A stretch of 64,000 bases of DNA from Eledone cirrhosa (taxonomy: Eukaryota): positions 196,540,001 through 196,604,000 of the forward strand of contig OZ024743.1 in assembly GCA_964016885.1 (NCBI GenBank), written 5' to 3'. The translations under genes and the position numbers were made by a program. The notes beneath the pieces are model-generated. The model was not told where the DNA came from, ran no database searches, and saw only the letters and a program-made list of their open reading frames with translations. Position 1 is the first letter of the stretch; each line of letters starts with the position of its first letter. Positions 42,094-43,879 of the stretch are shown piece by piece.

Positions 42094-42386
42094 GTGCAAA
42101 CAATTTCATTAAAATACAGACCATGTCCACAAACTTTTGATTTAGGACATGTACAGCGGCAAGTTTTCTTGTTCCAGGATTTTGGATGTGTACATCTGGT
42201 ATTTAAAGATGCCTTGCAGCGACAGGAACAATCTGCCAAGCTGTAATCATGTATCTTATCATTGCAGTCTTCTTCTTTGACTTTACAAACTTGTTCACAT
42301 TCAGTATGGGTTTCAAGTTGGATTTCAACAACTCTATCCAAACTCAGACTTGGAACTCCGTAGAAATTGTAATTAAGTCGTACAAC
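42094..42386 (-). CDS. VEGF: PDGF/VEGF-family gene, exon: end of homology domain (HTECEQVC) plus CX10CXCXC repeats
   Basis: TAG acceptor at 42388-42387 and GTAAGT donor at 42093; 293 nt, phase 0 to 2; VVRLNYNFYGVPSLSLDRVVEIQLETHTECEQVCKVKEEDC...CSCRC...CRCTC... Confidence 0.92.
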
Positions 42387-42477
42387 CTACATAATAATAA
42401 TTGAGGAAATTCAGAATGAAATATTAACAAAGATGAAAAATAATTAAATAATAATGTGATGGCATAACACTGCTTAA

Positions 42478-42782
42478 ATAATAATAATAATGAAAATGAT
42501 TGTGTACAGTGCTCAGGTGCACTACAACTCAATAAAGGTGCATGTATAGTACATAGAATAATGTACAAATGTCAGGAAAGTGAACAGTGTATGAGTCATG
42601 ATATACACACAGACACACACATACAGATACATGTGTGTGTGGAGTAGATAATATCAGGTGTAGTGTTGGTGAATTTCAGGAAGAATGGAAGTTTTAAAGT
42701 TTGCAGTGTACCAACAACTAATAACTGATGCAGGTAGTTCGTTCCATGCTTCAGCAACTCTGAAGCATGGAACAAATTACCT
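42478..42782 (-). mobile_element. CR1-like LINE 3' fragment with short inverted 5' end
   Basis: Homologous to the 3' end of 46215-47252; (ATT)n tail; GAAGCATGGAAC is inverted near 42762-42782. Confidence 0.8.
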
Positions 42783-42904
42783 CGTTCTTCTAGAATCAAT
42801 AAAATAAAGTACCAGTCAGGTACCAGAATCGATTTGATATTACTAAAAGGCATCCTAAATTGCCCTTCCAGCTAGATTGAAGACAAGCACCCTAATGTTC
42901 AACC

Positions 42905-43465
42905 ATGGTAGTGTGGGTGCCACAATAAAATGCACCCAGCCCACACTCGGTAATGTGGTAGGGCTGGTGGCATGATAAAATACACCTAGCCCACACTGTA
43001 AAATGGTAGTGTTGGTACCACAACAAAATGCACCAAGCCCACATTGTCATATAGTAGTTGTGATGCCATGATAAAATACACCTAGCCCACACTGTAAAGT
43101 GGTAGTGTTGGTACCACAACAAAATGCACCAAGCCCACATTGTCAAGTAGTAAGTGTGATGCTACGATAAAATACACCTAGCCCACACTGTAAAGTGGTA
43201 GTGTTGGAGCCAACAAAATGCACCAAGCCCACATTGTCAAGTAGTAGTTGTGATGCCACGATAAAATACACCTAGCCCACACTGTAAAGTGGTAGTGTTG
43301 GTACCACAACAAAATGCACCAAGCCCACATTGTCAAGTAGTAGGTGTGATGCCACGATAAAATATACCTAGCCCACACTGTAACGAGGTAGTGTTGGAGC
43401 CAACAAAATGCACCCAGCCCACATTGTCAGATGGTAGTGGTGGTTTCGTGATAAAAGGCACCTGG
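42905..43465. repeat. 48-bp minisatellite arranged as alternating A/B 96-bp dimers, attached to a (TGA)n-tailed SINE ending ~43625
   Basis: GATAAAATA(C/T)ACCTAGCC recurs at 42974, 43070, 43166, 43260 and 43356; reverse complement of the unit at 24082-24315. Confidence 0.88.
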
Positions 43466-43691
43466 TATGCATCATGAGGTTGTTGAAATTAGAAAGGGCA
43501 TTCAGCCCCTAAAACCATGCCAAAATAGAACATCTGAGGGTAACACTGTCATATAGACTGTCTAGCCTCAGAAAATGTCAACGCATGTTACCCAGGGAAG
43601 TATGGAAAACAGTGATGATGATGATGGTGGTGGTGGTGGTGGTGGTGGTGGTGGTGGCAATAAATTGAAGAGAAAGAAAAAGTGAACTTAC

Positions 43692-43879
43692 TTGCACTTT
43701 TTTCATTTCTTTTCCTTCTTTAGCAGGAACACAGGCAAGGGACTCATGCTCTGCACAGCCACCACACCTCTTCACTCGAGTACACTTCGGCCAATAATAC
43801 TTGTTGTATTCCTCAGGCTGAGGTATTTCTATTGTTGTCAACCGGGGTGAACATAAATCAACAGTAACAATGTCATTTG
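43692..43879 (-). CDS. VEGF: PDGF/VEGF-family gene, core homology-domain exon
   Basis: TTTTTCTTAG acceptor and GTAAGT donor; 188 nt, phase 1 to 0; LCSPR...WPKCTRVKRCGGCAEHESLACVP matches the PxCxxVxRCxGCC...CxP signature. Confidence 0.93.

Follow-up and report, generated by a model that had tools for sequence, protein, structure and literature searches.

The window analysed here, a 64,000-nucleotide stretch of the Eledone cirrhosa genome, most likely carries an octopod gene that is orthologous to the VEGF-C/D-like PDGF/VEGF-related factor of molluscs. It is spliced and transcribed and has no cysteine pair V-VIII, and its product would fold and act as a disulfide-linked dimeric ligand of a VEGF/PDGF-type receptor. 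The loss of the pair is a real, clade-wide variant of the known PDGF/VEGF family. In cystine-knot growth factors, the disulfides III-VII and V-VIII close a ring that is threaded by I-VI, and PDGF/VEGF ligands are taken to be defined by this knot. In the octopod gene, in its cephalopod orthologues and in every named mollusc relative checked, at least half of the ring-closing bond is gone, and the other cysteines are invariant. The features of the locus are as follows.

43692..43879, minus strand: third coding exon, first part of the VEGF homology domain (AG acceptor, GTAAGT donor, Pfam match, contig piece)
43752..43754, minus strand: Ala codon GCA at the Cys V position, equivalent to VEGF-A Cys61 (sequence, alignments)
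42387..43691, minus strand: intron between the two domain exons, skipped by the spliced contig
42094..42386, minus strand: coding exon that closes the VEGF homology domain (VVRLNY...HTECEQVC) and carries three BR3P-type repeats (Pfam CXCXC, splice sites, contig piece)
42291..42293, minus strand: Gln codon CAA at the Cys VIII position, equivalent to VEGF-A Cys104 (sequence, alignments)
42285..42287, minus strand: TGT codon of a "ninth" cysteine, which follows the Cys VIII position by two residues (conservation in alignments)
38728..39145, minus strand: last coding exon (splice acceptor, contig piece 39145-38669)

The frame is open through the three exons to a TAA stop at 38730-38728 on the minus strand, which gives a partial protein of 298 amino acids with 22 cysteines. 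The third coding exon translates as xNDIVTVDLCSPRL...PKCTRVKRCGGCAEHESLACVP...KKVQ and holds Cys I, II, III, IV and VI together with the alanine at the Cys V position. The next exon completes the domain and continues into the repeats C-X11-C-X-C-X-C, C-X10-C-X-C-X-C and C-X10-C-X-C, the first of which has 11 residues, not 10, before CXCXC. An end of this exon at the in-frame stop at 42090 was rejected and corrected to 42094, within a split Thr codon where the donor lies. The last coding exon contains what is left of the third repeat, a linker rich in Thr and Ser for which disorder is predicted, and a conserved four-cysteine tail (C..KRCP..W.PV.QRNG.CGCKPNFG), and the transcript contig extends at least to 38669. 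The acceptors (...TTCTTAG|CA at 43880/43879, ...TATGTAG|GTT at 42387/42386 and ...TTTGTAG at 39146/39145) and the donors (CAA|GTAAGT at 43692/43691 and AC|GTAAGT at 42094/42093) are all canonical. Two upstream coding exons lie outside the window, the one for residues 17-48 about 27 kb beyond its end according to a genome search, and tblastn with the orthologue N-terminus gave no match within the window. The intron between the domain exons carries a 96-bp tandem repeat (~5.5 copies, 42906-43429), a stretch of (CCA)n and dispersed repeats of high copy number; the peaks of contig depth over it mark repeats.

Both replaced codons were read directly. On the minus strand, the row from 43800 gives ...AAG AGG TGT GGT GGC TGT GCA GAG CAT GAG TCC CTT GCC TGT, that is, KRCGGCAEHESLAC, in which the Cys IV codon TGT (43757-43755) directly precedes GCA (43754-43752). 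Similarly, the minus-strand row from 42300 gives CAT ACT GAA TGT GAA CAA GTT TGT (HTECEQVC), with Cys VII encoded by TGT at 42299-42297 and the glutamine at the Cys VIII position two residues later (CAA, 42293-42291). An earlier note on this DNA, made from its letters, had described RCGGCA and HTECEQVC at these two places, with splice sites, reading frame and the other family cysteines intact; all of this held, the sites being canonical, both exons open and each remaining family cysteine invariant in a 46-sequence alignment. Its assignment of the two residues to the positions of VEGF-A Cys61 and Cys104 was borne out by the Pfam and PDB alignments. In the PDB sequence search, "rcggcaeheslac" aligned to VEGF-A "rcggccndeglec" and "HTDCE" to VEGF-D "HTGCK". 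The PF00341 match of the O. bimaculoides orthologue ends at profile position 81 of 82, and a full-knot relative covers 82 of 82. Judged against the eight-cysteine signature, the protein thus has six of eight cysteines, with Ala at V and Gln at VIII. Since the sequence has neither half-cystine of V-VIII, the canonical ring of III-VII and V-VIII cannot close. At the level of sequence, the protein is a homologue by descent that breaks the eight-cysteine signature.

The transcript evidence bears on whether these codons are genuine. A contig from run X4 (1185 nt, depth 21.9) matches 43879-43690, 42384-42094 and 39145-38669 with no differing letters, a count that covers these three pieces; its 5' 227 nt belong upstream of 44900. 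A search of sequencing runs listed no RNA run with the gene, an outcome that has no bearing on its expression. We take run X4 to be cDNA, because two GT..AG introns are removed exactly, and since the contig joins the exons exactly, the exon joins and both codons stand in the spliced transcript. The earlier note had excluded a sequencing error and proposed to look in cDNA for Cys codons or other splicing; the contig shows neither and agrees with the window at both codons. The note was also right that A-to-I editing could not restore the cysteines: by the genetic code, A-to-G changes cannot turn GCA or CAA into a Cys codon, and the contig is free of differences. That the feature stems from an error of assembly or sequencing, or that the gene is a pseudogene, is thus extremely improbable: nothing was found in favour of it, contigs from DNA runs and the spliced contig both match the window at the two codons, the frame stays open across three exons until TAA, and equivalent residues occur in independent assemblies of three Octopus species. 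Nor does the feature look like chance, because the replacements are kept in the three Octopus species and in two sister clusters, with the other family cysteines invariant across 46 sequences.

Membership in the PDGF/VEGF family, as the earlier note had proposed, is well supported. The first domain exon by itself scored 47 bits against PF00341 (profile 1-55; cut-off 27), and the O. bimaculoides orthologue scored 53.2 bits (profile 1-81 of 82). Sequence matches in the PDB comprised VEGF-A, -B, -C, -D and -E and PDGF-A/B, the best with E = 7.6e-9. The three repeats of the C-X10-C-X-C-X(1-3)-C type that lie C-terminal to the VEGF homology domain place the protein in the VEGF-C/D-like subgroup; exon 42094..42386 scored 15.4 bits against Pfam CXCXC (cut-off 15), and the repeat cysteines are invariant in the 46 aligned sequences. 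Overall, 18 cysteines and Pro86 are invariant in that set, and identity to O. bimaculoides is 77/93 in the VEGF domain, 53/64 in the BR3P part, 77/108 in the linker and 21/27 in the tail. The fold was assessed on an orthologue, P0002, whose identity to the window protein is 78%. In its AF2 model, ten-residue blocks over residues 61-220 average pLDDT 89-98, the linker falls below 50 and the four-cysteine tail reaches 81-95. The best Foldseek matches to this model were chains of PDGF-A, PDGF-B, VEGF-B, VEGF-C and VEGF-A (probability 1.00; target-normalised TM 0.60-0.76), so that the orthologue is predicted to adopt the VEGF/PDGF monomer fold.

The cysteines that remain suggest how such a protein could be held together. 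Cys II and IV, the inter-chain pair of the family, are both present in the window, invariant in 46/46 aligned relatives and present in every covering row of a wider alignment. The intrachain bonds I-VI and III-VII and the inter-chain bond II-IV' would form as in VEGF-A, the ring normally threaded by I-VI would stay open without V-VIII, and the ninth cysteine would probably pair inside the C-terminal Cys-rich region. For the ninth cysteine and Cys IV, this pairing draws on conservation and on cysteine parity: the core cysteine count is even in 23/23 both-lost rows and odd in 16/17 rows that lack VIII alone.

A different pairing would rebuild the knot. In that arrangement, the cysteine of CGGC-A, normally the inter-chain Cys IV, would bond with the downstream cysteine of CEQVC, yielding a ring of 9 residues in place of the usual 8 at the cost of covalent dimerisation. 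The two cysteines sit one and two residues away from the missing ones, and assignment among adjacent cysteines is a known ambiguity; protostome PVFs are described as often lacking the inter-chain cysteines, with the accessible part of the source cautioning that alignment artefacts may account for part of the pattern (Rauniyar et al. 2023, PMC10328876). We nevertheless consider a rebuilt knot unlikely. The ninth cysteine (C152, invariant in 46/46 sequences) occurs in 149/149 relatives on the tree, including 112/112 with a full knot, where the motif reads CxCxC, so it already has another partner in those. This also settles whether the downstream cysteine of VC substitutes for Cys VIII, a check proposed by the earlier note: it is a family-wide ninth cysteine, and substitution is ruled out. 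Moreover, Cys II, with which Cys IV pairs in the family, persists in 23/23 both-lost rows, while the orphan V was lost repeatedly; C-G-G-C followed by 7 residues to Cys VI retains the C60 equivalent without an indel; and the co-lost residue, Cys VIII, is known to pair with V and not with IV. As a matter of general structural knowledge, neighbouring residues of a strand point to opposite faces, which also speaks against the exchange.

We therefore return to the open knot with covalent dimerisation retained. As a disulfide-linked dimer, the protein would signal through the animal's VEGF/PDGF-type receptor, and it is likely that it works as an open-knot dimeric ligand and represents an old variant rather than a one-off oddity. 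An alternative is that the gene is a paralogue that has relaxed or taken on a new function (as a decoy, matrix protein or monomeric factor, for example) and has ceased to signal as a VEGF-type ligand, so that the open knot is a symptom of decay. The automatic name "balbiani ring protein 3-like" of the Ruditapes and Liolophura homologues would suit this, as would the long Thr-rich linker with its predicted disorder. Against this, the receptor-binding domain retains 77 of 93 residues of its Octopus counterpart, with one difference among the 37 residues that surround the knot, the remaining cysteines do not vary in the 46 sequences, the transcript is intact and spliced, and the fold prediction for the orthologue is confident. 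In addition, no second VEGF-C/D-like locus was found in the genome; the one other PDGF-domain locus found has all 8 cysteines and belongs to another subtype. Decay of a paralogue is, accordingly, very improbable. In O. vulgaris, vegf is expressed in hemocytes and vegfr in endothelial cells, according to the accessible text of PMC9712504, and interaction of the C. gigas VEGF PDGF domain with the ectodomain of its receptor was assayed by BLI (PMC12468279, accessible text).

The distribution of the loss shows that it is not confined to Eledone. Three Octopus species share it (Ala or Ser in place of Cys V, Gln in place of Cys VIII), as do the two sister clusters that are the closest relatives, with Glu at the Cys VIII position. 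Among 149 relatives placed on a tree, 112 have the full knot, 20 lack both V and VIII, 17 lack VIII alone and none lacks V alone. Cys VIII is absent in all 15 named mollusc species, and a bryozoan, a horseshoe crab and a planthopper are among the named non-mollusc cases. This wide set of relatives came from an exhaustive search; word-based searches reached just the Octopus cluster, and one started from a sister cluster added one further cluster and Mya arenaria. For the nearest full-knot relative, a protein atlas look-up returned arthropod PDGF clusters only. The rarity that the earlier note had implied does not hold up, as the cephalopod orthologues lack the same pair and it is missing time and again among protostome relatives. 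The note had allowed that a clade-wide loss might already be documented: the loss is indeed clade-wide, and no paper on knot-cysteine loss in invertebrate PVFs turned up in a search of mostly open-access literature; the accessible text of PMC10328876 makes no mention of such loss.

The same counts bear on how the pair was lost. The earlier note had called the double replacement compensatory and not a sequencing error; the change is real in the spliced contig, whereas a single coupled event fits less well than stepwise loss, VIII first and then the orphan V, because 17 relatives lack VIII only and none lacks V only. We infer from these sequences that the loss is probably both stepwise and old; it may reach back to the stem of the molluscs. 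As a raw 2x2 table, the counts (20, 17 / 0, 112) give p = 5e-15, a value that ignores relatedness. An independent-pairs test of V against VIII found 6 pairs on starred branches, ~3 changing the same way and 0 the opposite way, with a median p of 0.25, and is underpowered with so few pairs. In an AU test, a single clade of cephalopods and VIII-lacking molluscs, a group chosen after tree inspection, was not rejected (constrained log-likelihood 7.05 higher, p-AU 0.688). Without the constraint, the trees join the cephalopod clade to full-knot sequences (support 92, not starred) and not to the other molluscs; an independent cephalopod loss and a loss in the mollusc stem are therefore equally tenable. 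A broader scenario, for which we see somewhat less than an even chance, is ordered decay in protostome VEGF-like ligands: VIII would have disappeared at, or close to, the root of Mollusca, with the orphan V then discarded independently many times and never the reverse, leaving the phylum's main VEGF-C-like ligand without a true knot. If so, nature would have run a replicate of VEGF-A C61A/C104A for hundreds of millions of years, in a phylum that counts among its members the cephalopods, whose closed vessels are lined by endothelium.

Natural sequences such as these could serve as a test of an idea drawn from engineered VEGF-A mutants, namely that the knot helps folding and not stability. They also show the minimal needs of a VEGF ligand in an animal group whose circulation is closed. 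For annotation, searches that demand eight cysteines would miss or mislabel such ligands, and the absent "CC" could be misread as a loss of the inter-chain cysteine.

Compared with known systems, the octopod protein most resembles vertebrate VEGF-C and VEGF-D. It shares with them the signal peptide (seen in the orthologue), the VEGF homology domain, Cys I-IV, VI and VII, the His before Cys VII and the C-terminal C-X10-C-X-C-X-C repeats; indeed, the orthologues of O. sinensis and O. vulgaris are listed at NCBI as "vascular endothelial growth factor D". It differs from them in lacking Cys V and VIII, in the extra invariant cysteine two residues after the VIII position, and in its Thr-rich linker and four-cysteine tail. 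The second-best PDB sequence match was 1MKK, "Disulfide deficient mutant of VEGF-A (C61A and C104A)", in which the same two positions are replaced, the first also by Ala. This engineered VEGF-A C61A/C104A is reportedly that of Muller et al. 2002 (J Biol Chem 277:43410). That mutant was made in the laboratory from a vertebrate protein, whereas the octopod protein occurs in nature and is evolutionarily old, with Gln at the second position. Disulfide mutants are described, in the accessible text of PMC2759523 and PMC3328748, as having wild-type-like structure and thermodynamic stability and poorer folding, which speaks for the viability of a protein with an open ring. PVF-2 of Drosophila and PVF-1 of C. 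elegans are likewise protostome factors that break the eight-cysteine signature; the accessible part of PMC10328876 reports them without the inter-chain cysteines II and IV, whereas the octopod protein keeps II and IV and lacks the knot pair V and VIII. Finally, IL-17 cytokines, another cystine-knot superfamily with paired loss of one disulfide, lost one of their three knot disulfides repeatedly and in whole clades, as the accessible text of PMC11087794 describes it, although they form a different family with a different type of receptor, and other disulfides are affected.

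The VEGF-C/D-like growth-factor gene lies on the minus strand, and its exons considered here are as follows.

43879-43692, minus strand: first domain exon, preceded by an AG acceptor (43881-43880) and followed by a GTAAGT donor starting at 43691
42386-42094, minus strand: second domain exon, encoding VVRLNYNFYGVPSLSLDRVVEIQLETHTECEQVCKVKEEDC..., then three C-X10/11-C-X-C-X-C repeats
39145 to the TAA stop at 38730-38728, minus strand: last coding exon

The first of these exons encodes the peptide xNDIVTVDLCSPRLTTIEIPQPEEYNKYYWPKCTRVKRCGGCAEHESLACVPAKEGKEMKKVQ. The 3' limit of the second, 42094, falls in a split Thr codon (AC, then GTAAGT), correcting the earlier note, whose two unusual codons, Ala GCA at 43754-43752 and Gln CAA at 42293-42291, are exactly as it stated. 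Two public sequencing runs were mapped on 38650-44900, and one of them, X4, yielded a single 1185-nt contig (record 9, depth 21.9, minus strand; pieces 43879-43690, 42384-42094, and 39145-38669). The contig joins the three exons with 0 letters differing from the window, upholding both codons and the splicing. The two-base overlap at its first joint is the usual ambiguity, in which GT closes the intron-side match and opens the next exon. Because both GT..AG introns are removed exactly, we infer that the contig is cDNA; the gene is thus real and expressed. Among the runs listed by a run search, none containing the sequence is recorded as RNA, which bears on expression in neither direction. The initial 227 nt of the contig lie upstream of 44900, and when the genome was searched with the Octopus orthologue, the exon encoding its residues 17-48 (IPKTTKDRVNKITSLKDLQAYLHV) mapped to G000:C4:196631078-196631173 on the same chromosome. 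This is ~27 kb past the window end, and the gene therefore exceeds 52 kb, with its 5' end outside the window.

The window also contains the following repeats and open frames.

54370-64000, 51854-53151, 50830-51444, and 33900-38700: TA-rich, microsatellite-like arrays of great length, which take up a large part of the long upstream intron and of the sequence beyond the 3' end of the gene; from 54370 to the window end, TRF finds a TATA array with a period of 4 and ~2400 copies
42906-43429: 96-bp tandem repeat (5.5 copies, 90% matches) within the intron separating the domain exons, adjoined by a (CCA)n run at about 43620-43660
about 700-23400: long satellite-like array, reading as endless open frames of Leu/Ser/Ile/Tyr and broken by duplicated retroelement fragments
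11779-12915 and 16023-17159: first pair of these retroelement fragments, near-identical 378-aa ORFs (1 difference)
13386-14954 and 17631-19199: second pair of these fragments, identical 522-aa ORFs
46155-46967, plus strand: 270-aa open frame in the large intron, by eye resembling a LINE-type reverse transcriptase in its C-terminal part
39277-39485, 41785-41993, 42412-42620, and 43875-44083: segments where contigs of both runs reach depths between tens of thousands and millions

The extreme-depth segments, which flank the exons, represent high-copy dispersed repeats, probably of SINE-like type.

The gene has annotated orthologues in Octopus, and the PDGF/VEGF family is already textbook. The Pfam model PF00341 scored 47 bits on the first exon alone (cut-off 27), and the CXCXC repeat model 15.4 bits on the second (cut-off 15). 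A word-based search returned a 352-aa O. bimaculoides protein with 82% identity across the second exon, and its 90% cluster includes O. sinensis and O. vulgaris proteins, both titled ‘vascular endothelial growth factor D’. Compared with PDB sequences, this orthologue matches VEGF-A, -B, -C, -D, and -E as well as PDGF-A/B. Its ‘rcggcaeheslac’ aligns without gaps to ‘rcggccndeglec’ of VEGF-A, and ‘ethtdce’ pairs with ‘anHTGCK’ of VEGF-D. PF00341 covers profile positions 1-81 of 82 in the orthologue and 1-82 in a full-knot relative (P0010), the final position being the cysteine missing from the orthologue. The PDB alignments and the Pfam coverage therefore place Ala at Cys V (VEGF-A C61) and Gln at Cys VIII (C104), as the earlier note had assigned them. 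The orthologue’s second-best PDB sequence match is 1mkk, the engineered VEGF-A C61A/C104A mutant, whose record confirms that C61 and C104 form one disulfide in VEGF-A.

We then considered whether the cysteine two residues past the Cys VIII position (the ninth cysteine, in the ‘VC’ motif) replaces the lost one. At E ≤ 0.001, 542 relatives emerged from an exhaustive search; the best 150 and the three remaining members of the Octopus cluster formed a domain alignment of 153 rows. Full-knot rows of this alignment show a conserved His followed by C-x-C-x-C-x6-C, and the ninth cysteine is therefore a subfamily feature. It is Cys in every row covering that column, and is invariant in a 46-sequence alignment along with Cys I, II, III, IV, VI, VII, all eleven cysteines of the BR3P repeats that follow the VEGF domain, and Pro86; only V and VIII vary. 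Since full-knot rows also carry it, the ‘VC’ cysteine is not a newly recruited substitute. From Cys I through the third repeat, 94 of 112 full-knot rows among the best 150 of 542 relatives have 20 cysteines. The rows that lost both cysteines (from the same relatives plus the Octopus-cluster members) have 18 in 17 cases and 20 in six, an even number in 23/23, explained by one bond having been cleanly removed. Where Cys V is kept without VIII, an odd cysteine remains, and the count is odd (19 or 21) in 16 of 17 such rows in the best 150.

Searching the 3.0-Gb assembly with the Pfam model revealed at least two loci, the window gene and the following.

G000:C4:89338741-89338899, minus strand, same chromosome, outside the window: second PDGF/VEGF-domain locus (L003)

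This locus reads RC..GCC...C (…PSCTVIHRCRNVTGCCANASAVC…), then HTECECKE in the next exon, and has all eight of the eight family cysteines. It has no ninth cysteine and therefore belongs to another subtype. When the genome was searched with the first domain exon, no locus beyond that exon itself came up; the counts of both searches are lower bounds.

The earlier note implied that the paired loss is rare; it is instead clade-wide and recurrent, occurring in cephalopods, other molluscs, a bryozoan, and arthropods. The 153 rows (best 150 of 542 relatives plus three) comprise 112 with a full knot, 23 without both cysteines, 17 without VIII only, 0 without V only, and one truncated. Across them, Cys V was replaced by small residues (T 10, S 6, A 5, and P, G, and V once each) and Cys VIII by diverse ones (V 9, P 7, Q 6, A 6, L 5, and others). 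Within Octopus, the V position is Ala in O. bimaculoides and O. vulgaris and Ser in O. sinensis, with CEQVC in all three. The closest other relatives among the matches listed are two transcript-assembly clusters, P0006 and P0162 (74% mutual identity, 43-49% to the window protein), which share with the window protein the entire architecture and 22 cysteines, with the motifs CGGCS and CVEEC. With Octopus they make up a starred clade (99), suggesting another cephalopod lineage. Organism names were found for 11 of 20 further proteins looked up. Both cysteines are lost in the molluscs Saccostrea echinata, Nucella lapillus, Liolophura sinensis (a chiton), Mytilus (three species, one cluster), and Physella acuta, and outside molluscs in Watersipora subatra (bryozoan), Tachypleus tridentatus (horseshoe crab), and Nilaparvata lugens (planthopper). 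Only VIII is lost in Solemya velum, Ruditapes philippinarum, Patella (two species), and Mya arenaria. Overall, Cys VIII is absent in 15 of 15 mollusc species among the relatives with organism names.

Trees were built with the Cys V and VIII columns left out. The FastTree set of 149 rows, drawn from the best 150 of 542 relatives, omits P0003, P0004, and P0005 (near-copies of the O. bimaculoides orthologue, P0002) and the truncated P0114, leaving 112 full-knot, 20 both-lost, and 17 VIII-only rows. The both-lost state needs 13 changes on this tree and 14 on an IQ-TREE quick tree of 67 rows, with at least six forced by starred branches in each. Thirty-two VIII-lacking rows, including every named non-cephalopod mollusc, group together with weak support, and both-lost and VIII-only rows are interleaved inside this group, even within starred sister pairs (P0047/P0145, for example). 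One relative, P0104, is full-knot (CKCEC) on a long branch within a gastropod-rich group otherwise without Cys VIII; a regained cysteine, a misplaced row, or a paralogue could explain it. The free trees put the cephalopod clade outside the 32-row group, beside full-knot rows (support 92, not starred). Constraining cephalopods and the 32 rows together, a group chosen after tree inspection, gave a log-likelihood 7.05 above the free search and a p-AU of 0.688; one mollusc clade, and hence a single old loss of Cys VIII, is therefore allowed. A test of V/VIII coupling controlled for relatedness had low power, with 6 pairs on starred branches, about 3 going the same way and 0 the other (median p 0.25). 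The 17 VIII-only versus 0 V-only rows among the best 150 of 542 relatives point to stepwise loss, VIII first and the orphan V afterwards.

AlphaFold2 was run on the O. bimaculoides orthologue with the 46-sequence alignment.

AlphaFold2 confidence along the orthologue
VEGF domain and BR3P repeats, ten-residue blocks across residues 61-220: pLDDT 89-98
Linker, residues 223-321: pLDDT below 50
4-Cys tail: pLDDT 81-95

The top Foldseek matches of the model were PDGF-A precursor, PDGF-B, VEGF-B, VEGF-C, and VEGF-A chains, with 1mkk_B at rank 32. According to two reports (PMC2759523, PMC3328748), the VEGF-A disulfide mutants of Muller et al. 2002 kept a wild-type-like structure and unreduced thermodynamic stability, with reduced folding capacity. 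Based on the fold prediction and these mutants, the product is likely a secreted VEGF-C/D-like ligand with an open ring. Intrachain bonds I-VI and III-VII would form, inter-chain bonds II-IV' would link two chains, the knot ring would stay open, and the putative dimer would likely signal through the animal’s VEGFR/PVR. The observation of the earlier note stands, as does most of its structural reading. In two further studies, O. vulgaris expresses vegf in hemocytes and vegfr in endothelial cells (PMC9712504), and a VEGF of the oyster C. gigas had its PDGF domain assayed by BLI for interaction with the ectodomain of its receptor (PMC12468279).

A family survey describes inter-chain cysteines as frequently absent in protostomes, and the parts of its main text consulted do not mention loss of knot cysteines (PMC10328876). 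Our literature search found no description of V/VIII loss in these VEGF-like factors. Recurring across whole clades, this variant of a known family is moderately interesting, chiefly as a natural parallel to experiments on disulfide-deficient VEGF-A. IL-17 cytokines are described as showing paired loss of a knot disulfide in entire clades (PMC11087794), and the engineered C61A/C104A mutant of VEGF-A shows the change to be tolerated.
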